Assembly (NCBI GenBank): GCA_021324975.1
Contig: JAJPIA010000011.1
Coordinates: 15,984-79,983 of the forward strand
Direction: 5' to 3'
Source: Bacillota bacterium
Lineage (GTDB): Bacteria > Sysuimicrobiota > Sysuimicrobiia > Sysuimicrobiales > Segetimicrobiaceae
Length of the DNA stretch: 64,000 nt
Within the stretch, counting starts at the first letter, position 1; each line of letters opens with the position of its first letter. Below are positions 2,621-53,399 of the stretch, piece by piece. Under the pieces are notes generated by a model. The model had not been told where the DNA came from, did not search any database, and was given only the letters and a program-made list of their open reading frames with translations. Both the position numbers and the translations under genes were made by a program.

Positions 2621-2638
2621 GGTCTCCTCCTCTACGCC

Positions 2639-3562: not shown

Positions 3563-3568
3563 GCGCCG

Positions 3569-8948: not shown

Positions 8949-9231
8949 CGGCCCTTCGAGCACGGTAGGGATCGGCCCCCGCCGCGGCGGACCTAAATAT
9001 GCATGCGGACGTTTCTCGCCTCGATCCTGGCCGCCGGCTGCATCGTGCTCGGCGCGACGGCCGCGGCTCCGGCGGGGGCGGCGAGTGCCGCACCCGACTA
9101 CTCGCCGCCCCGGGCGCGTACAACCCCGCGGTCACGCAGGCCAACATCGACCGAACGGCAAACACACCTGAGTTCCACCTTCGCAGCGACGTCGACCGCG
9201 GATGGATCACCACAGTGCAAAGGAGCCTGAC

Positions 9232-10326
9232 GTGACCGACGACAGTGCGAAGCTCGTAGCCGTCGGTGAGGCGATCGACAGCCTCTGCACGATCGAAATC
9301 ACGGGACGCGGCGTCGTGGGCGCCCTCGCCGGCGCCGCCCGCGCGGCGCAGACAGGGCCGATGTGTCTGCGGGCGGCGCAGGAGCTCGCCCGGCGCGTTC
9401 AGCCGGGCGACACGGTCGTCATCGCCACCGGCCTGCCCACGTATCCGTGGTTCTTCGGGGAGCAGGACGGTCCCATCGGCGCGGCGACGCTCGCCCGCGC
9501 GTTGGTCCTCGGGCTCGCCGCGCGGCCCGTGATCGTCACGGAGGCGATCCACGTCGACATGTGCCGCGCAGCCGTGCGGGGCGCGGGGCTGTATGCCCGC
9601 GGCCTCGAAGACGCGCTCCGGTTGCCCACGACGGTCGGTGTGGTCGAGTTCCCGACCGACCCCGAGCGCGCCGAGCGCGAGGCGGCCCACCTGCTCGAGC
9701 GGCTGCGCCCCAAGGCCCTGATCGCGATCGAACGTCCGGGCGCGAACGAGCACGGCCACTACCACGCGGCCAAAGGCTATCGTCTGACCGAGCACTGCGC
9801 CAAGGTCGACGGCCTGTTTGCGCGCGGGAAGGCGGCCGGCGTCTATACGGTCGGCATCGGGGACGGCGGGAACGAGCTCGGCTGCGCCGTGATCAAGGAC
9901 GCGGTGATGGCGACGGTCCCGTACGGGGCCAAGTGCCAGTGCCCCTGCGGCGGCAGCGTCGTCCCGGCGTTCGTACCGGACCAACTCATCATCGCGGCGA
10001 TCTCCAACTGGGGAGCCTACGGCATCGAGGCGGCGCTGGGCCTGGTGCTGGAGCGGGAGCTTGTGCACGATCGCGATCTCGATCGCCGCGTGCACGAGCT
10101 GTGCGCAGCCGCCGAGGCGAACAACAACGGTCCCGGCCTCCTCGACCCCGGGACCGACGCCGTGCCCACAGAAGTGCACGGCGACTTCGTGAGGCTGCTC
10201 GGGTTCATGATTCAGAGCGGCATCGATTTCGGCCGCCTGTACAAGGAACCGCGGTACCCGTGGCTCCGCCGCGTAGAGACACCGTCCGGGCGATCGCCGG
10301 CTCCGAGGGAGGACACCCCGCGATGA
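9232..10326 (+). CDS. DUF4392 / D-glutamate cyclase-like protein
   Basis: GIGDGGNELGCA and CQCPCGGS motifs characteristic of the DUF4392 (D-glutamate cyclase) family. GTG start at 9232 preceded by AAAGGAG. Confidence 0.55.
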   Translation: MTDDSAKLVAVGEAIDSLCTIEITGRGVVGALAGAARAAQTGPMCLRAAQELARRVQPGDTVVIATGLPTYPWFFGEQDGPIGAATLARALVLGLAARPVIVTEAIHVDMCRAAVRGAGLYARGLEDALRLPTTVGVVEFPTDPERAEREAAHLLERLRPKALIAIERPGANEHGHYHAAKGYRLTEHCAKVDGLFARGKAAGVYTVGIGDGGNELGCAVIKDAVMATVPYGAKCQCPCGGSVVPAFVPDQLIIAAISNWGAYGIEAALGLVLERELVHDRDLDRRVHELCAAAEANNNGPGLLDPGTDAVPTEVHGDFVRLLGFMIQSGIDFGRLYKEPRYPWLRRVETPSGRSPAPREDTPR

Positions 10327-37638: not shown

Positions 37639-38955
37639 TCACCGGCGCCGAACCGCCGCGAACGCCGCGTCGCACGCCTCGAGTGTGCGGTCCGCGTCCG
37701 CGTCGGTGTGCGCCAGCGACAGGTAAAACTTCTCGTTGGGATTGGTCAAGATCCCGCGCCGGATGAGCTCCACGGACCAGCGCAGGTTGAGGTCCTTATC
37801 GGCCGTGAGCAGGTCCTCCCACGTTCTGAGCGGCCGCCGGTCCGTGAACCGGACGCCAAACACCGCGTCCTCGCCGGGCGTCTGCACGGCAAACCCGTAG
37901 CGGGCGCCGATCGCGGGGATCTCGCGGCGCAGCCGGCCGCCGATGCGGTGCAGATGCTCGAACGCTCCGGGACGCGCGAGAATCTCCAGGGCGGTGAGGC
38001 CGGCGATCGCGCTCACGGGGTTGCCGTTGAGCGTGCCGCTGGCCCACACCAGATGCGCACGATCGACCCGCCGCGCGTCCAGATGCTTCATTACACCGGC
38101 GCGGCCCGCGATCGCGGCCATCGGAAACCCGCCGGACATCGCCTTGCCGTAGGTCGCGAGGTCCGGCACGACGCCGTACCGCTCCTGCGCACCGCCCCAG
38201 GCGATGCGGAAGCCGGTCACGACCTCATCGAAGATGAGCACGATCCCATGACGCCGTGTGGCCTCACGCACAGTTTCGAGAAAGCCGGGCACTGGTACGA
38301 GCACCCGCTGGAGCGGCTCCACGATCACCGCGGCCAATTCGTGCGCGTGCTGGTCGATCAGCTCCGCGGCGCGCGCGGCGTCGTTGAACGGCGCCACGAG
38401 CACCTGACCCCGAAGGGCGTCCGGGATGCCGAGCGAGTCCGGCGCGGCGTCCGGATACGGGCTCGGTTGCGGCGGGACCGTGCCCCAGAGCGCATAGTCG
38501 TTCATCCCGTGCCAGCCGCCCTCGAACTTGAGGATCTTCTGGCGCCCGGTGGCGGCCCGCGCCACACGGAGCGCGAAGAACGTCGCCTCGGTCCCCGCGC
38601 CGGTGAAGTGCACCTGGTCCGCGCATGGAATGGCCTCCACCATGCGCTCGCTCAATCGAATGACGGGCTCGTTCAGGAAGTAATAAGTCGACCCCTTGGC
38701 GACCTGGCGTTGCACCGCCTCGACGATCTCCGGGTGGGCGTGTCCGAGGAGCGCCGGTCCCGACCCCAAATGGTAGTCGATCAAGTTGCGGCCGGACGCA
38801 TCGGTCACATGGCTGCCGCGCCCCTCCGCGATCACGAGGTTGACTTCCGGTGGAAGAACAAACAGGCCCAAGCCGCCGCCCGCGAGATAACGGCCGGCGC
38901 GGTCCAAGAGATCGGCTTGGCGATCGAGCTGGGTGCTCTGGGGATTGGGCGTCAT
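37639..38955 (-). CDS. Class III pyridoxal-phosphate aminotransferase (GSA aminomutase-like)
   Basis: AT-III signatures (LIFDEVVTGFR, GKAMSGG lysine). Start ATG 38955 with GGAGG SD. The listed ORF N-terminus (to 39156) runs into the CRISPR repeats and is an artefact. Confidence 0.8.
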   Translation of the reverse strand: MTPNPQSTQLDRQADLLDRAGRYLAGGGLGLFVLPPEVNLVIAEGRGSHVTDASGRNLIDYHLGSGPALLGHAHPEIVEAVQRQVAKGSTYYFLNEPVIRLSERMVEAIPCADQVHFTGAGTEATFFALRVARAATGRQKILKFEGGWHGMNDYALWGTVPPQPSPYPDAAPDSLGIPDALRGQVLVAPFNDAARAAELIDQHAHELAAVIVEPLQRVLVPVPGFLETVREATRRHGIVLIFDEVVTGFRIAWGGAQERYGVVPDLATYGKAMSGGFPMAAIAGRAGVMKHLDARRVDRAHLVWASGTLNGNPVSAIAGLTALEILARPGAFEHLHRIGGRLRREIPAIGARYGFAVQTPGEDAVFGVRFTDRRPLRTWEDLLTADKDLNLRWSVELIRRGILTNPNEKFYLSLAHTDADADRTLEACDAAFAAVRRR

Positions 38956-39076
38956 CCAGTGGCCTCCGGCGAAACGCGATCTGCGACACACTTCCATGGG
39001 GATCGGGGGTCTCCTCCCATTGACTGTCCCCTCCGGGTGAGAGCCATTCAACGCAGAACATCTTGGACCCGATCCA

Positions 39077-41012
39077 GCTTCAAAGAGGCCGCCGTCTTTC
39101 AACGGCGGAAACCCTTCGCTTCGCGGGGCGATACGCTCAATGCGCTTGAGCTTCAATGAGGCCGCCGTCTTTCAACGGCGGAAACGTGTTCCTCCTCACT
39201 GCCCCTTTCTCTCCAAGAGGATGCTTCAATGAGGCCGCCGTCTTTCAACGGCGGAAACGTGGAAAGAAATTTTCTTGGAGTAGTAGTAGCAAAGCTTCAA
39301 TGAGGCCGCCGTCTTTCAACGGCGGAAACTGCTCGGTCTCCCGAACTACTTCGACGCGTTCGCGAATGCTTCAATGAGGCCGCCGTCTTTCAACGGCGGA
39401 AACCGGGGTTCGCCGAGTTCGACGTGTCCGGCTCGGCACCGCTTCAATGAGGCCGCCGTCTTTCAACGGCGGAAACGTTCGACGGCAATGGCATCACGGA
39501 CGAAGTGCAGATGCTTCAATGAGGCCGCCGTCTTTCAACGGCGGAAACGTCGCGCGCTGAGTACCTGAAAGGCGCGTCGTACCTGCTTCAATGAGGCCGC
39601 CGTCTTTCAACGGCGGAAACGACGAGACCATTTTGATAGTGGTCCTTTTGCCGAAGCAGCTTCAATGAGGCCGCCGTCTTTCAACGGCGGAAACGTTCCA
39701 TGCGGGCTTTACACCGGAGCGCTGAAGATAATGCTTCAATGAGGCCGCCGTCTTTCAACGGCGGAAACCAAGAACATCATTGCGGACAAGACGTATGGGT
39801 TGTACGGCTTCAATGAGGCCGCCGTCTTTCAACGGCGGAAACGGTGCAGGTCTCGTACTCGGTGCGCCCGCTCGACGAGCTTCAATGAGGCCGCCGTCTT
39901 TCAACGGCGGAAACAAGACCACCTGTTTTACTGCATGCCACATAACGTGCCCGCTTCAATGAGGCCGCCGTCTTTCAACGGCGGAAACTCCGGCCACATA
40001 ATTTGGCTCCGGGTTAGAGATGGGCTTCAATGAGGCCGCCGTCTTTCAACGGCGGAAACCAAATTACGCCGGTACATTTAGTACGCGATCATACGCTTCA
40101 ATGAGGCCGCCGTCTTTCAACGGCGGAAACCTTTGGTATCGCAAGGATAGCACATACCCAAGAAACCGCTTCAATGAGGCCGCCGTCTTTCAACGGCGGA
40201 AACCAGACCACCACGCTCGATGCGTTCTGCGCGGCATGGCTTCAATGAGGCCGCCGTCTTTCAACGGCGGAAACCGGCACCTCGCTCGCGTTCATGGTCG
40301 CCAGCAGTGGCGGCTTCAATGAGGCCGCCGTCTTTCAACGGCGGAAACTCTACTTCCTGAGCCGTGGCAGCGGCGGGACGAACAGCTTCAATGAGGCCGC
40401 CGTCTTTCAACGGCGGAAACCGGCAGGCCGTCCAGATCGGCTCCCGGCGGCGGATCTGGCTTCAATGAGGCCGCCGTCTTTCAACGGCGGAAACTCGCCC
40501 GCGGCCGGGGTGGCAAGCCGGGGTGGCAAGCGCGCTCTCGGGCAAGCTTCAATGAGGCCGCCGTCTTTCAACGGCGGAAACCTCAAAACCCTGCTCGCCA
40601 TGATCCTGTCCATCCTCAGGCTTCAATGAGGCCGCCGTCTTTCAACGGCGGAAACCCGGGCCCCAAACACATTACCCAGGCAGAGGAGGTGCTTCAATGA
40701 GGCCGCCGTCTTTCAACGGCGGAAACCTCGTGCGCTCGGCCTGGACGCCGATGTTATAGCTGCTTCAATGAGGCCGCCGTCTTTCAACGGCGGAAACGTA
40801 CAGGCGCACCGAGGCGTGGCTTCTGCGCGAGGGCTTCAATGAGGCCGCCGTCTTTCAACGGCGGAAACTCTTCAAGCCGGGTCATCTCATCCTCGACACC
40901 ACGACGCTTCAATGAGGCCGCCGTCTTTCAACGGCGGAAACTTGTCCGGGACGCGGTCAGTCTCGCCGGATGCCTGGCTTCAATGAGGCCGCCGTCTTTC
41001 AACGGCGGAAAC
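39077..41012 (-). CRISPR. CRISPR array: 27 repeats, 26 spacers; 36-bp repeat GTTTCCGCCGTTGAAAGACGGCGGCCTCATTGAAGC (transcribed orientation, minus strand)
   Basis: Perfect 36-bp direct repeats every 71-74 bp. The first (distal) repeat at 39077-39112 carries one substitution (CAAAGAGG). Spacers are 35-38 nt except one of 51 nt. The repeat contains a 7-bp stem (CCGCCGT/ACGGCGG) followed by a 12-nt tail ending ATTGAAGC. Confidence 0.95.
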
Positions 41013-41250
41013 AGCGCGTGGCGCTGGCCCTTACTACCGAAGGTTCCCACGCAAGTCTTGCGAGCACCCGCCTCTCTTCAGGTCCGCTTTCTCGCACGTA
41101 TCACATTTGATGCTGAGGCGAGCCGCAAGGTCTGACAATGGACAACCAGTTTCGGACAAATGCGAGCGGCGCTCCCAAAACGACAAATCACGCCGCCGCT
41201 CGCGCCGACCCGCACATCTGTTCTATTGTCAAGGTGCGAGGGCTACTAGC
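41013..41250 (-). promoter_or_regulatory. CRISPR leader (AT-richer 238-bp segment between cas2 and the first repeat)
   Basis: Position between the cas2 stop and the proximal perfect repeat; lower GC than flanks; the degenerate repeat lies at the opposite end. Confidence 0.55.
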
Positions 41251-41553
41251 CTACACAACTCTGTATCGCTTGGCCACGGGAACAACAGCGCTGCCCAACG
41301 CGTGTATCCTGCGCAGCGCGCGACCGTGTGCTATGCCGAGATCGATGATATGCACGCTGTCTTCCGGAAGCTTTACCACCTTGATCAGCGCCTCCTGCAT
41401 CAGTACCTGTTCGGCGGACGACAGGTTGCAGACAAAGACTGAGTATTGCAGGGGATCGCCGTAACCCAGCATGGTTTCGTGCGTTTTCCGCAATCTCTTC
41501 GGCTCACGAACGTCGTAGCAAACGACGAATCGACGGCGTTGAGTCTCGCTCAT
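41251..41553 (-). CDS. cas2: CRISPR-associated endoribonuclease Cas2
   Basis: 100 aa, FVVCYDV...LQYSVFVC Cas2 motifs; ATGA overlap with cas4-cas1. Confidence 0.9.
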   Translation of the reverse strand: MSETQRRRFVVCYDVREPKRLRKTHETMLGYGDPLQYSVFVCNLSSAEQVLMQEALIKVVKLPEDSVHIIDLGIAHGRALRRIHALGSAVVPVAKRYRVV

Positions 41554-43250
41554 CGCGTGACGAAGGGCTTGTAGTCTGTCAGTTCTCCGACGACCGTTCT
41601 TGCCATCAAGCGCGCCTGGACCTCGAGAATCCGGCGGTAGCTGATAGAATAGCCGAATAAGGGATGCGTGATGAGTGTCTCCATCCTTTCCTCATACGCC
41701 TCCACGACGCGTCGCCGGGCCGGGTCCTTGATCGCGCAGGCCGACCCGCGCTGGACGAAATCGTCCTTGTGAACCATCTGATTGTTGATCAACGTAAGGA
41801 CAGTCGAATCACCGACGATCGGTCGGAATTCCTCTGCAAGGTCCAGACCGAGCGATGGGCGTCCGTAGTGTACCTGGTGGAAGAAGCCGATGTATGGGTC
41901 AAGACCGACGGCGATCAGCGAAGCAACGCAGTCTTTGAGAAGTAGAGCGTAAAGAAACGAAAGCAGCGCGTTGACAGGATCCCGCGGGGGACGGCGATTA
42001 CGCTCCCGAAAATCAAAGGCGAGTTCCGGGCGCAGCATGCCCGCAAACTCGGAGAAGTAAACGCGTGCCGCGGTGCCTTCGACGCCGAGGAGCGTTTGAA
42101 TCGAGTCGACGCCGTGGGCGCCGCCGCTTAAGCGTCCCAACTCGATCACCGCCGCCCGCGGCGAACCACGGTGATTCCGCCGTAAGAGCGTTCGCTGGTT
42201 TCGGATCTTGCCCCATACGAACGCCCGGGCCATGGACAGCGATCGCCGCGGATCCACAGCGACGCGGTATTGGGAGACTCGAAGCAGAACATTTCGCTGT
42301 TCGGGCGCGGTGGTTATCGCGGCGAGCCAGCCGCCGTAGGTAAAGTGCAGGAGCGGCGCTCCTCGCGCCACCACTCCGCGAATTGCCTGGGCGCTCACTT
42401 GGACATTGCCGGCAACGGCGACGTGAGAGACGTCGATCAGTCGCGCATGGGCCTCCGAGCCGTCGGGAGTGCGGACGACGAGCCGCTCGCCTTGCTTGCC
42501 GACCGTCGCACCTTGAGTGAGGACATAAAGTGGTCCCGCGTCTTCCCGCGCCGGCATGAGCCGGCGAACCTCCTCGGCCCTCACCCCACTCAAGAGGTTC
42601 GTTTCGTCGGGAAGGCAAATGCCGACGAGCGAGCAGCGCGGACATTTCGGGCTGTCTACGAGCGGGGGAGGTGGAATCGGTCGGGCGGCGGCTTCTCGAA
42701 GCCTCCGCACGGCCTCAAGCGACTTGGTGACCAGCGTTTCATCGAACTGCACGGCGAAGCGCTGTTTGGTGGCCGCATAGTAGATGCAGCCGTCATCACA
42801 AGCGTAGCCGTTCTCCCTTAGAATAAGCGCCTGCACACACAGTTGCACAAGGTCCGGTTCCCACGGGCCCTCGCGTCCCGGCGCACCTTTCTTGTAGTCC
42901 ACGGGCCGCACCCGGCCGCCGTCTCCCTCCAGGAGATCGATGCGCGCGATCAATCCAAGATTGGGAGCCGACAGCAGTACGCCTCGGGCTGCAATCCGAT
43001 CCTCCGGCTCCAACTCCGCCGCTTCGGGAAGCGGCCCGCCCTGCCGATCCACCCGCCGGTGAACAGCGGCGCCTTCGAGCGTGTCAACGCTGTGCGTGAA
43101 CTCTCTTTGAACCCATTCGAGATAGAACAGACGAGGGCAATAGACGAACTCGTTCACCATGCGGGCGGGAACCAGATCCCGCGCCGGAGCCGGTTCAGGC
43201 GTCTCGTCCGCGCCTTGACCCGAGCGAACACTCATGGCCTCATGGCGCAC
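41550..43250 (-). CDS. cas4-cas1: Cas4-Cas1 fusion protein (RecB-like nuclease domain with Fe-S cysteines + Cas1 integrase)
   Basis: N-terminal Cas4 (VYCPRLFYLEW; C-x-x-C...C cluster KCPRCSLVGIC), C-terminal Cas1 (NALLSFLYALL, GLDPYIGFFH). The fusion is a hallmark of type I-G/I-U. Confidence 0.9.
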   Translation of the reverse strand: MRHEAMSVRSGQGADETPEPAPARDLVPARMVNEFVYCPRLFYLEWVQREFTHSVDTLEGAAVHRRVDRQGGPLPEAAELEPEDRIAARGVLLSAPNLGLIARIDLLEGDGGRVRPVDYKKGAPGREGPWEPDLVQLCVQALILRENGYACDDGCIYYAATKQRFAVQFDETLVTKSLEAVRRLREAAARPIPPPPLVDSPKCPRCSLVGICLPDETNLLSGVRAEEVRRLMPAREDAGPLYVLTQGATVGKQGERLVVRTPDGSEAHARLIDVSHVAVAGNVQVSAQAIRGVVARGAPLLHFTYGGWLAAITTAPEQRNVLLRVSQYRVAVDPRRSLSMARAFVWGKIRNQRTLLRRNHRGSPRAAVIELGRLSGGAHGVDSIQTLLGVEGTAARVYFSEFAGMLRPELAFDFRERNRRPPRDPVNALLSFLYALLLKDCVASLIAVGLDPYIGFFHQVHYGRPSLGLDLAEEFRPIVGDSTVLTLINNQMVHKDDFVQRGSACAIKDPARRRVVEAYEERMETLITHPLFGYSISYRRILEVQARLMARTVVGELTDYKPFVTR

Positions 43251-43295
43251 TGGGACTACGCCGATGCGGCGTATTCACGCTGACGGCCCTCCGGT

Positions 43296-43703
43296 TCATG
43301 GGCCCGTCTCTTCGGGCAGGCGCGCGAAAATCGCCTCACAGACCCGACGGGCAATCGCCAGTGCCTGGCAGGCTTCCTCTAGCGTCGGCGCGGCCGGCAT
43401 CCCAGGATAGCGAAATCGCCAGGCGTAGGGGGTCAGATCCGCCGCCGGCCCCACCAAGTCGGTCATCGACGGATCGTGCGCGACCACCGCACGTCCCAGT
43501 TCATCCAGATCGTGAGTCTTCCGAAACGGCTCCTCATGCGCGCTGAGAAAGGCCTTCATCGCCTTCTCGGCCGCCTGCTGGCAGTGGAAGACCGCACCGC
43601 GCACGAGGGGCGGCGTCGCCGCAAGATCATGTTCCGCTTCGCGGAGGTCCTCCGCGGCTCGCTGCAGCCATTCCCGCACCTCGGCGAACAGCTCAGGCTG
43701 CAT
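43296..43703 (-). CDS. HEPN domain protein (putative RNase toxin of a HEPN/MNT pair)
   Basis: Rx4H motif in RGAVFHCQQAAEKAMKAFL matching the HEPN (pfam05168) consensus; 135 aa; overlaps the upstream MNT stop by 11 nt. Confidence 0.7.
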   Translation of the reverse strand: MQPELFAEVREWLQRAAEDLREAEHDLAATPPLVRGAVFHCQQAAEKAMKAFLSAHEEPFRKTHDLDELGRAVVAHDPSMTDLVGPAADLTPYAWRFRYPGMPAAPTLEEACQALAIARRVCEAIFARLPEETGP

Positions 43704-44025
43704 AGAGCAACCTGCCCTCCCGAAGCACCGTTGCCGGAAGGGAGCATACTACACGCGACCGTGAGTCGAATTCGTCGCGCGTCCAGACGAGAACGTCTTT
43801 GGCAACCCCGACACCCCTGAGCGCCCGGTAAGCCTGCTGATCACGGCGGTGGCCGGGCAGGTCAGATTCACGAACAATGACAAGGAGATCGTAGTCGCTG
43901 TCGGGCCCGGCCTCCCCGCGAGCGCGCGACCCGAATAGGTAGATTTGCTCGGGATGCAGTCTCGCGACGAGCCGCCGCACGATCTCGGCGAGTTTCGCAT
44001 CCTGCTCGAGGATCGGATCGCTCAT
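43693..44025 (-). CDS. Minimal nucleotidyltransferase (MNT, MntA-like antitoxin)
   Basis: LFGSRARGEAGPDSDYDLLVIV GS-x9-DxD pol-beta NTase motif. 110 aa starting at MSDPILEQ, which is the C-terminal part of ORF 43693..44304. Confidence 0.75.
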   Translation of the reverse strand: MSDPILEQDAKLAEIVRRLVARLHPEQIYLFGSRARGEAGPDSDYDLLVIVRESDLPGHRRDQQAYRALRGVGVAKDVLVWTRDEFDSRSRVVCSLPATVLREGRLLYAA

Positions 44026-44470
44026 ACAGGTTCGAGTTTCGGGGCCCCATTCTCTAACAACTGGTCCGCTTCCGTAAGCGTCGCGTGCCCGCGATCCAGG
44101 CGGTGTCGGGCGAGCGCCACAAGATCCGGATTCATAGAAGTACAGCTTCGTGGACGAGTGTCTGCACGAACCTGGTACATGTCCAGACAGGATCGTGAAG
44201 CACCGACTCTGCAAACACCCGCGGGGAGATGTAGACTTGATGGGTCGTTGGCACCGAGGGCGATATCGAGCACGCAATCCTCGACTCCGGTATCGGCTTC
44301 GCACACGAGTACCAAGACGCGATATCTGACTCGCCTGTATCGCGGCCGCTGGCCCTGGACCCGAAGAGTTTGAGCGTCACCACACTGTCACCCACCGCCG
44401 CCCGCACCTTCGGCACGAACTCATCGACGGCCGCCCGATCGTGAAGCGCAAGCACAGCGCGTGGCGTCAT
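44022..44470 (-). pseudogene. Second MNT-type nucleotidyltransferase, apparently frameshifted/degenerate
   Basis: N-terminal LFGSRASGRDTGESDI in ORF 44132..44470; the downstream hydrophobic continuation (VLVLVCEADTG...) is in the frame of ORF 44022..44315. The second Asp of DxD is lost in either frame. Confidence 0.4.
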
Positions 44471-44551
44471 GCCGTTCCGTCGCCGGTCACAGAGCGCTTA
44501 TCCAGCCGTGGTGACAATCGAGCACAAGCCGCAAAGATTTCTTCACGGCGG

Positions 44552-45700
44552 TCAGACAGCGCCCGCCGGGCTAAAGTTGATCTTAAAGTTGGCACCTTCG
44601 CCGATCTTGATGCGGCGCGCCCGGAAAAGCGCTTCTAAGCCGCGCGAGCGCACCACCGCACGGTCGGGCGCCGGGGAGAACAGTTCCGGCATTTGCAGCA
44701 ACGAACGGATCCCGTCCAGCGTCAACGGCTTGTCCCATATCGGCCATGTGAATACAGACTCCTCGCCGACTTCTCCCCAAGCAGTAGTGAGTAACTTCCC
44801 GCGGGCCGGGGCGGACGAGAATAGCACGAGTGCGCGATAGGCAAGGAGATTTGCCATCCATTGAGTATGCGCACCTATCGGCCCGGGATCACGATCCATC
44901 AGCGCGTATTGGTGTGCCTCGACCGGATCCCACCGAAGTGACAACCCTTCATCTTCATATCCCCATGGTTCAAAGAGCGTCCGCCTCAGGCGATCCGCGG
45001 CGACTTGCTGCATCAACTGTCGCACGGTATCCAAGAAGTACTGATGGCCTGATCCTCTGATGAAGCAGAACGGCGTCGGTACGACTCTGCCGTTCTTTTC
45101 GACGCTCGCGTCGCTCGCAAACGCGGCCAACAGGTCAACCGTCTCGCGGCGGTACACGCTAGAGCTGGTCAGCAGGCTGCGAGCGTGATCACGATATTCA
45201 TCTGGCGTGCAGTCGACGGATTTGCCCAGGGCTAGTTCCGGGCGTGCGACGGCATCCGCCAGTGCCGCCCGCCACGCATCGCGCAGGCGCTCTACCTCCA
45301 GCGACAAGACCGGCAGTTCTCGGTCCATCGCTGCCCGTCGCTCCATTCCTGAAAAGCGTTTGCGAATTTCCTTCCTCTTCTTAGCCAGTTGCTGCTTGGC
45401 CGCGTTGAATGCCTTTTCGGCACTCTTACGCCTCGCTTCCGACTCCGACGATATGGGCCGTCCACGGAGTTCTTCTGACAACACGTTGATCAGCGCATCC
45501 GAATTAGCGAACGGGACGTCCGTGAGCACGGCGATCCAGTCGAACTGTCGCCGCCATGCCAGACGAATCTGCACGTGGCCGCCGCGGTGGAGCGTCACCG
45601 CGGTGCCGAGCGCAGCGAGGAAACCCAACGGATTGCTCCCGGCAAAGCCCGGCAGTTCCACGATGCGCGAGTCTTGTCTCGTTGACGTCTCGCGCATCAT
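44552..45700 (-). CDS. Cas8u/Csx17-like large-subunit candidate of type I-G (short, 382 aa)
   Basis: Position after cas3 with ATGA coupling. N-terminal PLGFLAALG motif reminiscent of Cas8c/Cas8u2 N-termini. No other domain recognisable, so the assignment is by context. Confidence 0.5.
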   Translation of the reverse strand: MMRETSTRQDSRIVELPGFAGSNPLGFLAALGTAVTLHRGGHVQIRLAWRRQFDWIAVLTDVPFANSDALINVLSEELRGRPISSESEARRKSAEKAFNAAKQQLAKKRKEIRKRFSGMERRAAMDRELPVLSLEVERLRDAWRAALADAVARPELALGKSVDCTPDEYRDHARSLLTSSSVYRRETVDLLAAFASDASVEKNGRVVPTPFCFIRGSGHQYFLDTVRQLMQQVAADRLRRTLFEPWGYEDEGLSLRWDPVEAHQYALMDRDPGPIGAHTQWMANLLAYRALVLFSSAPARGKLLTTAWGEVGEESVFTWPIWDKPLTLDGIRSLLQMPELFSPAPDRAVVRSRGLEALFRARRIKIGEGANFKINFSPAGAV

Positions 45701-48700
45701 GGGGCGGCCTCAGTCACCACGTTCGCGGATTCTGTCAGCCGACTGGCATACCAGTCGCTGAGACGGAGCACCGCAGCCAAGTAGGCTTCACCCCACCACC
45801 CGTGGCGACGCACACTTGCCCAAAAGCGTTCGACCACGCCTGAGTCGATCCTATGGGCGTGCGAGAGTCCCGCCCGGGCAGCCGCGGTCAATTGCACCGA
45901 TACGTCGCCCAGGCGCCCTGCGATACCTGGAGGCGATGCGTCTTCCACGATCGGTGCGAAGGGCCGACCGTAGCCGTGGTGGCTTGCTATGAGATGAAGG
46001 ATCAAGTCCCGCACTTCTCGATCCTCGAACGCGAGCTGTTGTTCAGCCAGCTGCATGGACAACATCTCGTGCCTGAATCCATCAGGCAGCCCGGCCGCGC
46101 AACGAACTGTTCGGCGCTCTCCGGGAAGCACCGGCACATTTGCCGACTTGGCTATCGGTTTCTCAGACAGGACGGCCAGCACGTTCCCCCGCCGCAACAA
46201 CATCTGAAAGCGTTCGTCCAGCTTTCCGGCATCATGCCAGTGGCCGGCTAGTTCCACCGCGTCGCCTATGTCGGATGGGAGACATAGTTCGGCGATGCGT
46301 TCTACTGTACGTTGGACGAGCCTCGTATGCTCGTCGAGCGACACGTCCCGGGCGCCGGATGAAGTCAGATCGTCGTCGTCCGCGAACAAGTCGATTTCGT
46401 CGTCTTCGGGCACGGTCCGCGCGCGTCGGCCCATGAGCACCACGCCGCCACCCGGGTGCCGTTCGATACGCCCCGTGCGCGCCTCGCGAAGGAGAGTGAG
46501 CCACCACTTCGGTGGCGCGGGAGGGTCGTCCGGCGCCGTCGGCCGGTAGCCCAACGCGGCATCGACGGCATCGTTCAACGCCCCTCGATCGAGTACGGGA
46601 TCCTCGGCGGTTTCCATGACGACCGCCAAAGGAGGACACGTCAGCCACGGACCCAGCACGCGGCGATTCAACCGAACGACTGCGCGGCCCCTCTCGAACA
46701 CGGCAGGTTCCCACAGATCCACCAGAGACTCGCCCACAGCCATATGAGGCTCAGACTGGCCAAGGCCGTCAATGCCGTAGTCCGCGGGGATAACAACAAC
46801 GTCACCCGGCCCCACCAGCGTCGGGTCTCGAACGACTGTAGACGTGTCGCGCCCACGCCAGATCACAAAACGGCGATTCTGGGTCGCCGCAACGCGCTCT
46901 GCGATTGCCCCTACGCCCTCCACATCACCCGAGTCGTCGGGTCCGCCGCCGGGAATCGCGAGCCATGCACGAAGACGGTACAGAGGCACCGACAGCGTCT
47001 CGGCGGCCGATGGCGGACAAAGCGCCACGCTCTCGAGCCAGCTAGCGTCGGAATCGGCGACCGAAAGATCGCACCGCCACACGACCTGCGCTTCCGCCAC
47101 CCACGACCCGATGCCGTGGAGGAACAGATGCACATCGGGTTCCGGATACGGTGAGGCTGATGTCTGGCACAACAAATCGAGATGCGCCGGCAGCAGTATC
47201 GGAGCATCCGGGGCCGGGGCGCAATACGGCAATACGTCGTCCACATCACGGAGCGTGGAATGCAGCGCCCGCACTCCGAAATCGATCGAGACTTCCTTGC
47301 CGGCACGGGCTGCTTTCTCGCTCAACAGCCGCCACGTTGCTGCTACAGCGTCCCCATAAATTGGATCGGGATCCTCACCCCTGGCATCGAGATCGCGAAT
47401 CAGTATGGTCGCGGGCGTGACCGATATCCCTCCCATGCGGTTGAGCCGGCCGAAGCGCTGGCGAAGCGCGTCCAGACTTGCCGCCTCGGTGACAAGGGCG
47501 TCAAAACTGAAGTCCGCACCGACTTCGAGGCATTGCGTGGCAACGACAACGACAGGACGATGCGGCTCCTCAGGATCTGCCGCCCTCAAGCACGCCTGCC
47601 AGCGGTGCACCAACGCATCGCGTTCCAGGGGCCGCAAACGACCGGTGAGCAGCACGACATCGAAGAGTTCATTGGCGGCCTCTCGCAACGCCCGTGCCGT
47701 TTCTTCGGCGGTACGGACTCGATTCACCATCACGGCGACACGGCGGGCACCGCCGACTACGTACGATTGGGCCTCGGATGCGGCTCGCTTGGCCAGAGCA
47801 TCGGCCCCCTGATCGGCTGCGGTGCGTACTTCGACCAACACAGCGGGCTTGGACGCCGCCAACCGGCTGCGGAGCACCGGATGGTCCAGTGCCTTCGTCT
47901 CGGCACGTCCGGGGAACACGTCACGGCGGTCGACGTCATCACCGGGGGGCGTAGCGGACATGACTGTAAAGGCGAACGGTGAAGGCAACGGATGCGTCGC
48001 CCAGGCCGCACCGCGATAGAACTCGATGCTGCGCATCGTCTGCAAGAATGGGACCGAACAATGCGCCTCATCCAGGATGATCAGACTGTCGTTTGCCGCC
48101 AACCCTGCGTAGATCGGCGCCGCGAGCCGACCGGATCCGTATGCACGAAATAGGATGCGAGACCCTACCTGGTCGACCGTTGAGGTAATCACCGCCGGCT
48201 GGGACGGAACACGGGCCCACCCGTCGTCGCGCAATATTCCACCTCGCAAGCGCCCAACCGCCAACGGACGATCGGTTCCCGCAACGCGCCTGAGGGCGTC
48301 CGCTACTCTGCGCAGCGGTCCCGTAGCGGCGGATCGCAGCCTGCTTGCTATGAGAACGGCACGCTGGTGGGCTTCATCGACGACGATCCGGCGATCGACA
48401 ACAAACCAAATCCGACGCGGCGCGCTCCGCTCGCCGGTGGTTCGCTCAGCCTGTGCCGCAAGGGCATACAGTGCGATGTCGACGCACGCCGTCTTACCGG
48501 CCGCTGTTGGAAGCTCGATGACTTTGGGCCACGTGGCGGCGGCCACGCGGTCTGCGAGCATGGACTGCCAGGGAAACGGCTCGCGGCCCCATAATGCATG
48601 GAAGAACTCGTCGAATGAGCCGGCCGTCACGAACGGGTCTCCTGCCGGCGACTCAACGGACGACAGAAGCCGTATCCGCAAAATCGGCCGGCGCCGATAC

Positions 48701-48714
48701 TGATCGGCCCACAC
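45697..48714 (-). CDS. cas3: CRISPR-associated helicase/nuclease Cas3 with C-terminal HD domain
   Basis: Walker A LPTAAGKT, DEAH box IILDEAH, helicase C motifs. C-terminal HD nuclease (LDEHTRLV, GHWHDAGKLD, IASHHG); the helicase-then-HD order is typical of I-G. The N-terminal 29 codons overlap csb2 and the true start may be internal. Confidence 0.9.
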   Translation of the reverse strand: MWADQYRRRPILRIRLLSSVESPAGDPFVTAGSFDEFFHALWGREPFPWQSMLADRVAAATWPKVIELPTAAGKTACVDIALYALAAQAERTTGERSAPRRIWFVVDRRIVVDEAHQRAVLIASRLRSAATGPLRRVADALRRVAGTDRPLAVGRLRGGILRDDGWARVPSQPAVITSTVDQVGSRILFRAYGSGRLAAPIYAGLAANDSLIILDEAHCSVPFLQTMRSIEFYRGAAWATHPLPSPFAFTVMSATPPGDDVDRRDVFPGRAETKALDHPVLRSRLAASKPAVLVEVRTAADQGADALAKRAASEAQSYVVGGARRVAVMVNRVRTAEETARALREAANELFDVVLLTGRLRPLERDALVHRWQACLRAADPEEPHRPVVVVATQCLEVGADFSFDALVTEAASLDALRQRFGRLNRMGGISVTPATILIRDLDARGEDPDPIYGDAVAATWRLLSEKAARAGKEVSIDFGVRALHSTLRDVDDVLPYCAPAPDAPILLPAHLDLLCQTSASPYPEPDVHLFLHGIGSWVAEAQVVWRCDLSVADSDASWLESVALCPPSAAETLSVPLYRLRAWLAIPGGGPDDSGDVEGVGAIAERVAATQNRRFVIWRGRDTSTVVRDPTLVGPGDVVVIPADYGIDGLGQSEPHMAVGESLVDLWEPAVFERGRAVVRLNRRVLGPWLTCPPLAVVMETAEDPVLDRGALNDAVDAALGYRPTAPDDPPAPPKWWLTLLREARTGRIERHPGGGVVLMGRRARTVPEDDEIDLFADDDDLTSSGARDVSLDEHTRLVQRTVERIAELCLPSDIGDAVELAGHWHDAGKLDERFQMLLRRGNVLAVLSEKPIAKSANVPVLPGERRTVRCAAGLPDGFRHEMLSMQLAEQQLAFEDREVRDLILHLIASHHGYGRPFAPIVEDASPPGIAGRLGDVSVQLTAAARAGLSHAHRIDSGVVERFWASVRRHGWWGEAYLAAVLRLSDWYASRLTESANVVTEAAP

Positions 48715-50090
48715 ACGGGCCGGCCGAATTCGAGCATCGCGTGCGTGTGCCGACGTTCGCCGCCGTCCTTCCGGCGCAGGCGCGGGAACGCAAACGACGG
48801 CGGCGCGCCGGCGTGACGTGACACGGAAGTCACGGCAACGTTGCGAGGTTCAGGCAGGCCGATCCGGACGCACGCCGTCGCTATCATATCCGCAACTTCC
48901 ATCTGGTACCGGGCCCGGTCGGACGACTTAGGATGCCGGTCGAACACAACGGGTGTAACCGTTGCCCAGTGGGTCGCGCCGTCCGGATACGCTGTCCAAG
49001 CCTCCGCCCGCAGGTTCCACGCAAGGGAGCCCGTCTGGGGCGGCACAACAGACCAAACGCCGAGCGGGCCCAAAAGAAGCTGGCGCACACGCGCGATCGC
49101 CTGAAGAGCGACGCGGCGCTCGTCGAGAGAAACGGAGGACGGCAGCGTCAACGCCATGCCGAGAATTCTGCCGTCCGCATGTGGATGCCCCACGAACGCC
49201 AGCGGCAAAAGGGCCAAGTGCGGATCCGGAAGAGAACCCCCGTCGGCCCGGTGACCGGATAAGAGGCTTCGAATGCGCTCCGGAAGACCATTCGTTTGCG
49301 AAATGACCGCCTCACGCATGCGCTCGGCGACAGAGAAGACGGCGCACAGATCCAGAAAGGGATACGGGCCTTCCTCGCGCTCGAATGCCACGATGAGTGG
49401 ATAAAGCTCGAACGCGCTGCCCTGCGCCGAGACCGTTGCGGCCCCCCTCGTAGGACCAGCATAGGGCGCGTACGTCGGAATCCGCGGGCGCGTTCGGCGA
49501 GCATATCGTCGTTCCAACTCTTCCAGCAGCCCAGCGCCGGCGACGCGCATCTGCAACGTCCCGTTTCGCCCGTCCGGCACCCAGTCCGGCGTGCGCGGCG
49601 CGTCTGACGCCACCCACATCTGCACCATCGACGTCGAGTGCCCGACCCGCGTCACTTTCGCGCAGAGGCCTTCGAGGGCCCGGCGCACCGCCACAGTGGG
49701 CTCCGCCGAAGGCCATGAGTAGTAAACAGTGTCGTCCTCCAGCCAAGCGCGGGCGAATGACCTCGGTTGTCGGTCGCGCGCGAGCTGAGGCGCGGACTGA
49801 ATGGTCGCAGTTGGAGGTTTCCCGGCATCGCCTGGCTTGTCGTTCACCGGCACGTATTGGGTAACCATCGCCCGCTCGCTATGGCCGGCGGCGTTGATCT
49901 GCGGCGCTTCGAGGCGCTCCAACCACAAGAGCGCGTCGCGCTCAGCCTGGTCCGCGCCTGTTTCGAAGTGGGCGGCTGCAAGCGCCATATAGACCCTGCC
50001 CGGATGCGGCGGCCACTCAACACGCCGTGCGTGTCCGGCAGCATCAGCCGCGACGAAACCGTTCAGATACCGAATCCCAAAGACGAGCAT
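48627..50090 (-). CDS. Csb2-type Cas5-Cas6 fusion protein (type I-G crRNA-processing subunit)
   Basis: N-terminal MLVFGIRYLNGFVAA (RYLxG motif of the Csb2/GSU0054 family) and C-terminal glycine-rich loop GAGRFCGYGF typical of Cas6-like RAMPs. Confidence 0.75.
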   Translation of the reverse strand: MLVFGIRYLNGFVAADAAGHARRVEWPPHPGRVYMALAAAHFETGADQAERDALLWLERLEAPQINAAGHSERAMVTQYVPVNDKPGDAGKPPTATIQSAPQLARDRQPRSFARAWLEDDTVYYSWPSAEPTVAVRRALEGLCAKVTRVGHSTSMVQMWVASDAPRTPDWVPDGRNGTLQMRVAGAGLLEELERRYARRTRPRIPTYAPYAGPTRGAATVSAQGSAFELYPLIVAFEREEGPYPFLDLCAVFSVAERMREAVISQTNGLPERIRSLLSGHRADGGSLPDPHLALLPLAFVGHPHADGRILGMALTLPSSVSLDERRVALQAIARVRQLLLGPLGVWSVVPPQTGSLAWNLRAEAWTAYPDGATHWATVTPVVFDRHPKSSDRARYQMEVADMIATACVRIGLPEPRNVAVTSVSRHAGAPPSFAFPRLRRKDGGERRHTHAMLEFGRPVCGPISIGAGRFCGYGFCRPLSRRQETRS

Positions 50091-50094
50091 CTTC

Positions 50095-51341
50095 CTATTC
50101 TGTGCCCGTCGACTCCGTAACCGCCTCCAGCTGGCTTAAACGGACGAGTTTCACCAACTGATCGGAAGGTGTCAGCTCCACGGGGTTCTCCTCCCAGGTC
50201 AGACCCTTCGCCTTTGTCTGGTTCACTGCCGCGGCTAACAGCTTGATCGCCTCCGCCGAGGAAAGGTCGAACTCTCTCGGTGCTTCACCCGGACGATCCA
50301 GCAGCTGCCATTGCATGGCGCCCTCAGGCCAGAGCAGACACCGCGAGCGCAAATCGGCGCCGGACTCGAACGCGAGCGTGGCGGCGCAAAGGCCCAGCGC
50401 GGCGAGAGCCGTGCGCGCCGCGGCATCAAGTTCCGCGTCAGGCTTGCCGTCTACCGGGAAGCGTAGACGCCTGAGTGCAATAAGTGAGAGTGTCGTTGTT
50501 TGCTCAGCGTATTCAATCGTCACGCCATTGTAGTAATTTTTTTCGGTCTTTTTGTCGCGCTGCTCCGGATACGGCACGCTCGAGTGGTTAAGTTTGGACG
50601 GCGCGACCCCGCCCTTGGCATGTGGATCCGCGACCTCCCAGGAATTGTTGTCCTTCTTCACGACTTTGACCGCCGCACGAATTTCAAGAGGATCGCGCCG
50701 CACGCCTCGCCGGAGGTCGCCTACCTCGGCCCCGACGCCCACAATTTCTGATACCACCACCCGTTCAAACTTCGGTCCAAGTCCGCCCTTCGGTCCTGTC
50801 GAGTCCCACATCCCAAGGAGCAATGCCGTGGGGCAAAGTATGTAGACCGGTGTGGCGTTGGAGGGACCGGCGCTGCTCAGCATGCGCCCTTTCTCCGAAT
50901 CGCGAAATGGCTTGCCTTCGAACTCGCTGTCACGAAGGATGGCATCGGCCAAGCGATGAGGCACTTGAAGGCTCGTGATCCGTCCGACCGCCTCGACCAG
51001 CCGACCCTCCTGCTCATCGCTCTTTGTATCTCCTTTGGGATCGTGGCGGCTGAAGTCCACAACCACCGTCGGCAGCGCGAGGACTTTCGCATCGAGGGCG
51101 TCTTGGAGAGCAAGCTCCATGCGGTTCGCCTGACTCTGAACGCTGTCCAGCAGTACGCATGTAACCGGCAGGTCCCGGCCGGGGATACGCCGTGTTTCAA
51201 TCGCGTATACGGCGCCGGCAAACGTGGGGGGGAAAACCTTGTCGCCCGGCCCCCTGCCGGTTGCAGCCGTCGGCGGCACCGAAAGGCGGCTGCCGATCCC
51301 TCGACCGCTGCCCGAAGGGCCTCAAATGTCAATGCGCTCAT
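50095..51341 (-). CDS. cas7: Csb1-type Cas7 backbone protein; the 5' end is apparently frameshifted (assembled ORF 50095..51279)
   Basis: Low-GC RAMP. The N-terminal region GDKVFPPTFAGA is reminiscent of the Csb1 RFQPTGFP motif but is recalled rather than verified. ATG at 51341 has a perfect GGGGAGG SD and reads MSALTFEALRAAVEG...LQPAGG in the -1 frame, joining the main frame at a C5/G5 homopolymer (51250-51254). Confidence 0.7.
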
Positions 51342-51857
51342 AGTGTGCCTCCCCTGATCTGCGCCCCGTGATGAGAGTTCGCGGCGCTCAATCCACCGGC
51401 TCCCTCGCCGAGATCGGTCGCCCGTGTCCGCGCCGAGCTCGTGGAACATCTCTTGGTCTGACGCCATCGAACCCGCCAGAAGTAATGCGTGAGCAAATTT
51501 CAATATGCCCACCGCCCATGGCCACTAGACTGGAACTAACTCGACTCCCTTTTTCGGCTTCCTAACTTCGAGCTAGGGCAATTGCGACTGCGACTCCGTG
51601 GGCAGAAGCCTGACCGGGGCAGCAACGAACATAGGTTCGATTCGACATGGCCATTATCCTCTACCCCAAGACAGGCAATTGCCTGCGCCGACAGCCTACG
51701 ACTCCCTCTTATTGGGCATGTGCAGGTCGAGAAGAAGGCGACACCGGCAAGCCACCGATTTCTGGCGGATCAGTCGTCTTTGCATCGGGTCGCGGTGGCT
51801 GGATATGAGGCCCGATCGACGGCTGCCGCGCCGGACTTAACGACCGCGGGGTGCCGC

Positions 51858-53399
51858 ATGGATTTGCTTTTCTTGTTTGGTGGCATTGTCCTCGGCACTC
51901 TGGCGGCGAGCGTGGCATGGCAGCGCCGCCTGAGCGAGCACCAACGCGCGGCCGAAGCCCGCAGCCTGAAGCTCGAGGAACAAGTTCACAGGTTCGAGGA
52001 CCAAGCGCGAGAGCAAGCAGCGCGACTGACAGAATCACGGCACCGGGAGGACGCCGCTCAACGAGCCTTGCAAGAGGAAGCTCGCCTCCGGGCCGCTTCC
52101 GAAGAAACCGCAAAGCGGGTCCCAGGGCTCGAAGGTACGGTGGTGCAACAGAACACAGAGTTGACGAATCTTCGGGCGGAACTTGCATCGTTACGGACGC
52201 AAATCGTCGACGAGCGCAGGAACCTCGAAGAGAAAATGGGGATCCTCAACGACGCGAGGGCCCACCTGCAGGACGCATTCAAAGGTCTGTCCGCAGAGGC
52301 GTTGCGAAGCAACAATGAGGCGTTCTTGCAACTTGCCCGGGAGAACCTGGAGCGGTTTCAGCAGGGCGCAGTGGCCGACCTCGACGCTCGGCGGCAGGCC
52401 GTGGATGACGTCGTGCGCCCTCTCCGCGAACACCTCGGGCACGTCCAAGTTAAATTGGGCGAGTTGGAGCGCCAACGGCTTCAAGCGTATAGCGCGCTCG
52501 ACGAGCAGCTGAAGGCTCTGGTTCAGTTGCACCTACCCCAACTGCACAGCGAAACCCTAAATCTCGTCAAAGCATTGCGTCAACCTAGCGGGCGCGGCAG
52601 GTGGGGGGAACTGCAGCTGCGTCGCGTCGTGGAAATGGCCGGGATGCAGCCACACTGCGACTTTACGGAGCAGACGACTGCTACAACCGATAACGGACGC
52701 TTGCGGCCCGATCTGATTGTATGTCTTCCCGGTGAGCGTCGTCTCGTTGTCGACGCCAAAGCCCCTGTCGACGCGTACCTGAACGCCATCGAAGCCGGGG
52801 ATGATGAGTCGAGGCGCCGGTTCCTTGTCCAGCATGCCACCCAAGTGCGGAACCACATCGCCATCCTGGCCAAGAAGGAATACTTCGAACAGTTTGAGAT
52901 CACGCCAGACTTCGTCATCATGTTCATCCCAGGAGAAGCGTTCTTCAGCGCAGCGTTAGAGTTCGACCCCGGGCTCATTGAACACGGGGTGGAGCAGCGC
53001 GTCATCCCGGCGAGTCCCACGATTCTCATCGCACTCTTGAAGGCCGTTGCCTACGGTTGGCGCCAGGAAGCCGTAACTCGAAATGCCCAAGAGGTGGCGG
53101 AACTCGGAGCAGACCTCTACCGGCGAATCAGCGATCTCGCAGACCGGTGGGGCGAGATTGGAAAGCGCCTTGGCCAGATGGTTGAGGCCTATAACAAGGC
53201 GGTGGCCACCTTGGAGACCCGCGTCCTCGTGACGGCACGGCGGTTCGCTGGATTGGGCGTCGCGCGACATGATGACAGCATTGCACCCGTAGAGCCTGTC
53301 GAGAGGGCTCCACGGGTTCTTGCCGCACCCGAAATGATACGCCATGATGCGCTCGCACTGGAGAGCCCTCGTTCGACCACAGAGGACGAACGGAACTGA
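51858..53399 (+). CDS. rmuC: DNA recombination protein RmuC
   Basis: N-terminal TM helix, long coiled-coil, C-terminal RmuC nuclease-like domain (DFVIMFIPGEAFF). ATG at 51858 within ORF 51582..53399. Confidence 0.85.
   Translation: MDLLFLFGGIVLGTLAASVAWQRRLSEHQRAAEARSLKLEEQVHRFEDQAREQAARLTESRHREDAAQRALQEEARLRAASEETAKRVPGLEGTVVQQNTELTNLRAELASLRTQIVDERRNLEEKMGILNDARAHLQDAFKGLSAEALRSNNEAFLQLARENLERFQQGAVADLDARRQAVDDVVRPLREHLGHVQVKLGELERQRLQAYSALDEQLKALVQLHLPQLHSETLNLVKALRQPSGRGRWGELQLRRVVEMAGMQPHCDFTEQTTATTDNGRLRPDLIVCLPGERRLVVDAKAPVDAYLNAIEAGDDESRRRFLVQHATQVRNHIAILAKKEYFEQFEITPDFVIMFIPGEAFFSAALEFDPGLIEHGVEQRVIPASPTILIALLKAVAYGWRQEAVTRNAQEVAELGADLYRRISDLADRWGEIGKRLGQMVEAYNKAVATLETRVLVTARRFAGLGVARHDDSIAPVEPVERAPRVLAAPEMIRHDALALESPRSTTEDERN

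Follow-up and report, generated by a model that had tools for sequence, protein, structure and literature searches.

Two-gene modules of a HEPN protein and an MNT nucleotidyltransferase are divided into class I and class II (PMC11586414). In the type VII toxin-antitoxin (TA) systems HepT/MntA, the MNT protein nucleotidylates the HEPN toxin (PMC7641770, PMC11586414), and the RX4HXY motif, whose tyrosine is the AMPylation site, is present only in class I modules (PMC11586414). TA pairs are also known from the inside of cas cassettes. Those of Sulfolobales are interspersed with vapBC pairs, which were proposed to help maintain the locus (PMC4390879), and the RNA-based TA element CreTA (Li et al. 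2021) is described in the papers that cite it (PMC12737573, PMC13000451) as a safeguard of the Cascade genes. Here we analyse a 64,000-nucleotide (nt) stretch of a Bacillota bacterium (assembly GCA_021324975.1, contig JAJPIA010000011.1, positions 15,984 to 79,983; hereafter the window). On its minus strand, an intact pair of genes, MNT110 (43693-44025) and HEPN135 (43296-43703), lies between the effector and the adaptation genes of a type I-G cas operon. TA pairs inside cas cassettes being already known, the window adds to this pattern a bacterial example, a class II MNT-HEPN module of putative TA type in type I-G; our literature searches found no study linking HEPN-MNT to this type.

The likeness to the described systems is partial. 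The vapBC pairs of Sulfolobales are also protein TA pairs, located within cas modules or between them and in some cases present more than once (PMC4390879), but they have a PIN toxin, belong to archaeal type I-A and type III loci, and are not described as translationally fused just 5' of cas4/cas1. As far as the citing papers describe it, CreTA likewise lies within a type I cas locus, but it is made of RNA and its antitoxin needs Cascade, so that the cas genes themselves are addictive. In contrast, the MNT-HEPN pair consists of two proteins, neither of which visibly depends on Cas, and it survives in a relative that has no cas genes. An Rfam search of positions 38500-52000 (E <= 0.1) matched the CRISPR repeats alone, and no CreA-like or other known RNA. 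Finally, Csm6, Csx1, and Cas13 have the HEPN superfamily fold in common with HEPN135, but they combine a canonical Rx4-6H motif with a CARF sensor or guidance by CRISPR RNA, whereas HEPN135 is a bare domain of 135 amino acids (aa) paired with MNT; the fold match to Csm6 is marginal (template-modelling score, TM, 0.42-0.50).

We consider it probable that the pair is a promoterless, addictive class II MNT-HEPN cassette, a selfish passenger of the adaptation module and not a new part of the immune system. Related loci show it in four states: intact, with a broken toxin, stacked on older wrecks, and surviving the deletion of the cas genes. This series argues that the pair serves itself and not the CRISPR system, and it tempers the popular view of such modules as stabilisers or backups of cas loci. 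The series of states is of some interest in its details, as are the promoterless embedding with overlapping codons and the retention of the first ~32-47 HEPN codons. The locus also brings to notice a class II HEPN family that is well conserved but has no canonical RNase histidine.

The intact pair and its HEPN motif

Searches with hidden Markov models confirmed the two genes as given in a first-pass annotation, which a model had made from the letters and open reading frames (ORFs) of the stretch and which had placed an intact MNT and an overlapping HEPN gene between the effector and adaptation genes. HEPN135 matches PF05168 over residues 9-124 (E 2.8e-22, 79.5 bits for a cut-off of 22). MNT110 (110 aa) matches NTP_transf_2 (PF01909, E 4e-12) and Polbeta (PF18765, E 2.4e-9). 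The MNT gene is 5' of the HEPN gene and overlaps it by 11 nt. Its catalytic motif, G32-S33...D44-Y-D46, is intact in the window and in all relatives alike and follows the pattern hG[GS]x9-13Dh[DE]h. In PADLOC, MNT110 matches only the candidate family PDC-S09; HEPN135 has no match in PADLOC or NCBIfam. Both genes are under purifying selection, with ratios of non-synonymous to synonymous divergence (dN/dS) of 0.085-0.18 for HEPN135 (window against the related loci L004, L178, and L176, and L004 against L176) and of 0.06-0.12 for MNT.

The AlphaFold model of HEPN135, built on 60 homologues (predicted local distance difference test, pLDDT, 93), is an all-alpha up-down helical bundle with helices at residues 3-28, 34-55, 66-76, 78-94, and 108-128. 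The best folds in the PDB are all HEPN domains: ST0689 (1WOL), sacsin (3O10, TM 0.77), 4NQF, AF_0298 (2HSB), and TM0613 (1O3U). Among solved structures, the HEPN135 profile matches only 1UFB (E 1e-7), 1WOL, and 1O3U, three structural-genomics proteins. Residues Q42, Q43, K47, and K50 are invariant in the family; H40, E46, T63, H64, D65, R98, and Y99 are nearly so, and W95, P100, and G101 are also conserved.

The profile matches lead to the class II modules of Thermus (TT1696, 1UFB), Sulfolobus (ST0689, 1WOL), and Thermotoga (TM0613, 1O3U). The window pair shares with them the PF05168 and PF01909 domains, the fold, the MNT gene in 5' position with gene overlap, the QQAAEKALK signature of helix 2, and the RYP motif. 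It differs from TT1696 at the canonical HEPN motif site, before the last helix, where the RYPDAH (Rx4H) of TT1696 is replaced in the HEPN135 family by RYPG-x-P. HEPN135 itself reads R98-Y-P-G-M-P, without the histidine, and no histidine is conserved at the Rx4-6H site among 60 family members. The first-pass annotation had instead found an Rx4H motif in RGAVFH (R35...H40) and had called the gene HEPN RNase-like. That stretch belongs to helix 2, and many family members have E or D in place of R35, so the argument from this motif fails. Because RX4HXY is found only in class I modules (PMC11586414) and HEPN135 lacks its histidine, we class the pair, from its sequence, as a class II (classical) MNT-HEPN module. 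For the same reason, an RNase activity of HEPN135 is not established. The relatives 1UFB, 1WOL, and 1O3U have no demonstrated activity, and a mechanism cannot be transferred from them; we know of no class II HEPN-MNT module that has been characterised biochemically.

The type VII comparators are the HepT/MntA pair of Shewanella (SO_3166/3165), the HEPN/MNT pair of Aphanizomenon, and the HEPN-MNT pair of Legionella. The window pair resembles them in its strict MNT-then-HEPN order, its GSx10DxD nucleotidyltransferase, its small HEPN helical bundle, and a conserved tyrosine beside a conserved arginine, which may be an AMPylation site. In HEPN135 this tyrosine, Y99, directly follows R98, unlike in RX4HXY. 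Further differences are the score of MNT110 against the NCBIfam MntA model (NF047752), 37.2 bits for a cut-off of 60, and the weak matches of HEPN135 to HepT folds (TM 0.43-0.62).

These features would also suit a pair that is no TA system at all. It could form a two-subunit nucleotidyltransferase, modelled on kanamycin nucleotidyltransferase and sacsin HEPN, in which HEPN would be the non-catalytic subunit binding the substrate or nucleotide and the target would be a protein, an RNA, or a small molecule. The canonical RNase histidine is missing, the sacsin HEPN domain among the best folds binds nucleotides while HepT toxins match less well, RX4HXY is restricted to class I (PMC11586414), and HEPN-MNT members without active-site residues have been noted before (PMC3710099). 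Even so, we find such an enzyme quite improbable, since a genome-wide screen picked out HEPN proteins without the motif as toxins (PMC3710099). Moreover, the Legionella HEPN RNase has a Mg site at Q44/E47 (PMC11586414), which Q42, Q43, and E46 of HEPN135 recall in their Q-x-x-E spacing; the two proteins could not be aligned, and the resemblance is one of spacing only. The pattern of gene decay described below also speaks against it.

The slot upstream of cas4g/cas1g in related loci

We compared the window with I-G loci whose Cas4/Cas1 is 75-83% identical to its own. An MNT gene lies directly 5' of cas4/cas1 in six lineages (the window, L178, L004, L005-L009, L175, and L183), five of which have an intact HEPN, and these lineages span two effector gene orders. 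L178 has the gene order of the window and a flanking peptidase gene 91% identical to it in nt; there the MNT start overlaps the stop of the Cas3-extension gene (cas3ext). The order in L004 is cas3-cas8u-csb1-csb2-MNT-HEPN-cas4/1, and the MNT start overlaps the stop of csb2. In L175 it is the HEPN stop that overlaps the start of cas4/1. The possibility, raised with the first-pass annotation, that the insert is a separate unit away from the cas genes in relatives thus applies to one of them, L176 (see below), and is contradicted by five others, in which codons of the pair overlap cas genes.

The window and L004 diverge to a similar extent in HEPN (dN 0.15, dS 0.84), MNT (dN 0.12, dS 1.05), and Cas4/1 (dN 0.16, dS 1.51), in keeping with their inheritance together as one block. 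On its 5' side, homology ends <= 3 nt from the MNT start codon in four different upstream contexts. What is conserved therefore seems to be the unit MNT-HEPN-cas4/1-cas2, upstream of which the effector genes have been exchanged.

Such constancy can be read in favour of a role in immunity. The pair might genuinely belong to the I-G adaptation module, as an accessory that switches cells into dormancy or abortive infection and so buys time for adaptation, as in the immunity-dormancy coupling hypothesis of Makarova and Koonin, which draws on HEPN toxins near immunity loci (PMC3632139, PMC3710099). HEPN would then become active upon a failure of MNT or Cas expression, or while spacers are being acquired. 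The position and orientation directly 5' of cas4/cas1, fixed in six lineages, the start and stop codons overlapping those of cas genes, and the purifying selection on both proteins all agree with this. So does L146 (FWPU01039058.1, 1521-2290), where a pair of the same family was inserted independently between csb2 and cas3 of a related I-G operon. We nonetheless regard both the switch and its proposed trigger as unlikely, in the first place because of how rarely the pair and the cas genes occur together.

Three relatives of equal Cas4/1 identity lack the pair: L169, L171/L172, and L173/L174, the last being metagenome-assembled genomes of Armatimonadota, contain, in gaps of 640, 617, and 177 nt, respectively, nothing that matches MNT or HEPN significantly. 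Remnants of decayed MNT or HEPN were also sought in the gaps of L169 and L171 (617-640 nt), with no match at E < 0.1; the absence there is real or very old. We then took one genome per species, which gave 80 I-G loci, 64 of them evaluable at the junction between the effector genes and cas4/cas1. Only one (L009) carries the pair, and 63 do not. The gap between the last effector gene and cas4/cas1 is at most 260 nt in 45 of the 64, and 12, L009 included, have inserts of ~480-1400 nt. The loci with unrelated inserts (L012, L016, L022, L034, L035, L038, L040, L047, L050, L057, and L077, at ~8600-10000) encode, according to Pfam, a PolB-like 3'-5' exonuclease (2 loci), a TIR protein, a STIV B116-like protein, an extra Cas2, and, in L047, a 23S_rRNA_IVP protein together with a zinc-ribbon protein; several ORFs of 220-280 aa in these inserts have no Pfam match. 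Hence, the junction 5' of cas4g/cas1g is a commonly used slot, which MNT-HEPN occupies only in one subclade. The first-pass annotation had called a TA pair inside a type I cas operon unusual. This is right for the pair itself, found in 1 of 64 loci, but inserts at this junction are frequent and TA pairs in cas cassettes are documented (PMC4390879).

The HEPN family as a whole is found mostly elsewhere. It has at least 423 homologues of HEPN135, mostly of 135 aa, among them proteins of 57-79% identity in Chloroflexota, Nitrospira, Planctomycetes, Eisenbacteria, and delta-proteobacteria. A search of metagenomes with a family profile gave 80 loci, and an MNT homologue lies directly upstream of HEPN in 78 of them, the other two ending at the contig edge. 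Cas genes adjoin the HEPN-family locus in only 2 of these 80, and the remaining 78 are not cas-linked. With its strict pairing, mostly away from cas genes, MNT-HEPN bears the marks of a horizontally moving two-gene module and not those of a cas gene. Its vehicle was sought among mobile elements. A collection of cultured plasmids gave seven weak HEPN relatives (<45% identity) and a phage collection gave none, so a plasmid or phage vehicle could not be shown. An origin as integron cassette is unsupported: inspection of the junctions by eye revealed no attC-like or terminal repeat common to different contexts, only a 6-bp hairpin after the HEPN stop.

Some of the loci without the pair have features of their own. 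L169 (~1160-1550) and L171 (~9555-9950) have in common a stretch of ~400 nt (67% nt identity) just 5' of cas4/cas1. Its gene calls disagree, with a minus-strand gene of 110 aa in L169 but a plus-strand gene of 77 aa in L172, where the region is that of L171. In L171/L172, a type III-B (Cmr) cassette with a Csm6-like gene and a transposase (1-5022) directly precedes the I-G cas3 and adaptation genes, and csb1 and csb2 are missing from the stretch seen.

Cassette turnover, HEPN decay, and loss of the cas genes

The first-pass annotation had read positions 44022-44470 as a second, frame-broken copy of MNT. Most of this stretch is indeed a pseudogene of MNT (pseudo-MNT113, 44132-44470), although of a subfamily different from that of MNT110, but 44022-44135 is a stub of a HEPN gene (HEPN'). 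Both are on the minus strand. Two frameshifts, near 44320 and 44245, put ~26 codons of pseudo-MNT113 out of frame, including the second Asp of DxD, and the unrepaired sequence has no Pfam match. Once corrected for both, it is 70% identical to the intact protein P0242 over the full 113 aa, and the reconstructed MNT113 passes the PF01909 cut-off (24.5 bits). The HEPN' stub is a 37-codon ORF: 32 codons are 50% identical to residues 1-32 of the HEPN of L180 (134 aa, PF05168 E 1.1e-16), and five unrelated codons follow. In L180, this intact HEPN follows a homologue of MNT113. The stop of pseudo-MNT113 overlaps the start of the stub, whose TGA in turn overlaps the ATG of MNT110 (ATGA in both cases). 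Judging from these homologies, 44022-44470 is what remains of a different, older cassette. The wreck predates the split between the window and L175, because it is 76% identical in nt to the MNT113-stub segment of L175 (804-1224), which contains an orthologous stub.

L175 itself preserves a longer stack. In order, it consists of a truncated MNT113, MNT118a, a 34-codon HEPN stub, an intact MNT113, a 47-codon HEPN' stub, and the pair MNT118b-HEPN137. L005 and L175 have a different allele of the pair (118/137 aa), with HEPN only 53-57% identical to that of the window, yet their Cas4/1 is closer to the window's (80-83%). Accordingly, HEPN has a dN of 0.37 between the window and L005, against 0.13 for Cas4/1. 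The MNT118a of L175 is orthologous to the MNT of L005 (dS 0.35, against 0.42 for Cas4/1). Since L005 and L175 carry another allele and L175 stacks three MNT genes and two HEPN stubs, the cassettes have been replaced more than once. A single ancient insertion followed by strict vertical descent was rejected: the divergence of HEPN is 3-10 times that of Cas4/1 (window against L005, L005 against L175).

All the truncated HEPN copies (window 44040-44135; L175 694-798 and 1136-1273; L183 5347-5502) retain the first ~32-47 codons and have their breakpoints in the loop between helices 1 and 2, and the stop of a stub usually overlaps the start of the next gene (ATGA or GTGA). Protection of the 11-nt overlap with MNT was considered as a reason for keeping the stubs, but it does not account for the kept codons. 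The stubs would gain importance if the class II MNT-HEPN module of one I-G subclade were now permanently attached to the Cas4/Cas1-Cas2 adaptation module and translated together with it, arresting growth during spacer acquisition or nucleotidylating a component of the integration machinery. This is a speculation to which we attach little weight. If true, the ~32 HEPN codons retained after toxin decay would be a functional element, and CRISPR adaptation would here be linked functionally to a class II HEPN-MNT module for the first time.

The MNT gene adjoining cas4/cas1 is intact in every lineage, whereas HEPN is not always so. L146 has a single in-frame stop at codon 83 of HEPN, and its neighbouring cas genes look intact. 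In L183, an in-frame deletion of residues ~33-117 leaves a 51-aa product, again with cas genes that look intact. The stubs of the window and L175 are further cases of HEPN decay. Loss of the downstream HEPN with retention of the upstream MNT is the pattern expected of a toxin and its antidote, and is the sole, indirect evidence in these loci that HEPN is harmful. A two-subunit enzyme fits this asymmetry poorly, HEPN being repeatedly destroyed while the adjacent MNT is always kept. An accessory of the adaptation module likewise sits badly with the inactivation of HEPN in L146 and L183 beside seemingly intact cas genes.

The reverse situation is found in L176 (1-2910) and L177 (Logan SRR24079423 and SRR24079484), a close relative of L004 which has kept MNT-HEPN and no cas genes. 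A truncated rmuC (its first 236 codons), a gene that in L004 adjoins the I-G locus, is followed by 430 nt of unrelated DNA, MNT-HEPN, a ~20-codon stub of the 5' end of cas4/cas1, and convergent transporter genes. The stub shows that cas genes were deleted on both sides and the pair spared. The MNT and HEPN of L176 are 95% and 93% identical in aa to those of L004, with a dN/dS of 0.06-0.09. This constraint after the loss of the cas genes suggests that the module protects itself and not the island.

L176 bears on two roles that the first-pass annotation had proposed. The first is a coupling of the pair to the CRISPR response, against which stand the pair kept and selected in L176, the broken toxins of L146 and L183, and the 78 of 80 family loci that are not cas-linked. 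The second is stabilisation of the island, which can be at most local. An addiction module could in principle be kept because it protects costly cas genes from deletion, an idea documented for Sulfolobales vapBC (PMC4390879) and, in the account of a citing paper, for CreTA (PMC12737573). The place of the pair between the effector and adaptation modules would serve this end, as any single deletion spanning both also removes the pair. We deem this improbable as the reason for its maintenance: L176 lost the cas genes on both flanks with the pair precisely spared, so that protection did not extend beyond the pair itself, L146 and L183 lost the toxin without losing cas genes, and nothing ties the function of the antitoxin to Cas proteins, unlike in CreTA. 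Each of the rival explanations is thus contradicted by some part of the comparative pattern.

We therefore return to the addictive passenger cassette and outline how it might work. The segment would be a short stack of class II MNT-HEPN cassettes, inserted in the gap of the operon immediately 5' of cas4g/cas1g. MNT110-HEPN135 would most likely be co-transcribed with the cas genes, since, in a scan of 41000-51800, the cas strand showed neither a sigma-70-like promoter nor a terminator from 43250 to 44552; the scan used only the sigma-70 consensus, which may not be the host's, and its total counts did not exceed those of shuffled sequences. By analogy with HepT/MntA, MNT may neutralise HEPN by nucleotidylation, perhaps at Y99 beside R98. 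HEPN that is not neutralised would stop growth, whether by a non-canonical RNase activity or through binding to RNA or nucleotides. The cassette would persist because losing the antitoxin is harmful as long as the toxin is present, which would explain why MNT is intact in every relative and HEPN is sometimes broken. The pair would be inherited as a block with cas4/cas1-cas2, while the effector genes upstream are rearranged or exchanged, and replacement of cassettes over time would have left behind the frameshifted MNT113 and the 32-codon HEPN stub. If the CRISPR locus benefits, for instance because adjoining DNA is shielded from deletion, this would be a by-product and not a dedicated immune function.

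Several points weigh against this proposal. The role of HEPN135 as toxin is drawn indirectly, from analogy and from the pattern of gene decay, and the canonical RX4HXY is absent. Toxicity, neutralisation, and co-transcription are predictions, and the promoter scan is too crude to prove or exclude an internal promoter. The pair has kept one position and the orientation of the operon across lineages with Cas4/1 dS > 1, which could reflect selection for a role in CRISPR. Finally, the second insertion of the same family in a I-G operon, at another place in L146, hints at more than chance.

Layout of the type I-G locus

The window has a type I-G CRISPR-cas locus on its minus strand, including cas3g, csb1/cas7g, csb2, cas4g/cas1g, cas2, and the array. 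The I-G cas genes score above the NCBIfam equivalog cut-offs. The effector genes are csb1/cas7g (50095-51279), csb2 (48627-50090), and cas3g (45697-48714); their NCBIfam models are TIGR02570, TIGR02165, and TIGR02621. They are followed by cas3ext, a gene of the Cas3-extension family (44552-45700, NF049934 E 9.5e-71). Along the cas strand come then, 81 nt further, pseudo-MNT113, the HEPN' stub, MNT110 (the putative antitoxin), HEPN135 (a putative toxin or substrate-binding partner), and the cas4g/cas1g fusion (41550-43235, NF049935 E 1.4e-224, Pfam Cas_Cas4 and Cas_Cas1). The stop of HEPN135 is 60 nt from the start of cas4g/cas1g, or 45 nt if the alternative GTG at 43250 is used. The cas2 gene (41251-41553) is known from a gene call with Pfam PF09827 in L001 (12151-12453), which was mapped back to the window. 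L001 is a 193-kb soil-metagenome contig (JGI 3300005533) identical to the window, and the same contig occurs in the ENA and Logan assemblies. The CRISPR array (39150-41012) has 26 repeats of 36-37 nt.

No gene for a csx17/cas8u2 large subunit was found between 41251 and 51279, where the Cas3-extension gene follows cas3 instead. In L004 (4287-6602) and L005 (3646-5841), a gene of 731-771 aa follows cas3, in the order cas3, that gene, csb1, csb2. The variant of the window (csb1-csb2-cas3-Cas3-extension) has no gene of csx17/cas8u size, and the relatives with the other order have a Cas4/Cas1 75-81% identical to its own. It seems that one adaptation module is common to two effector architectures.

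The Logan assembly of the contig (L003, 12453-12922) has ~1.8 kb less of CRISPR array than the JGI and ENA assemblies (L001 12453-14749; window 38955-41251). This is probably due to the collapse of repeats in assembly, but it could also be strain variation. At the other end of the locus, rmuC (window 51582-53399, plus strand) adjoins the I-G genes in several related contigs (L004 250-1509, L005 1-1165, L169 6636-7952, L176 835-1545), in varying orientations and on varying sides.

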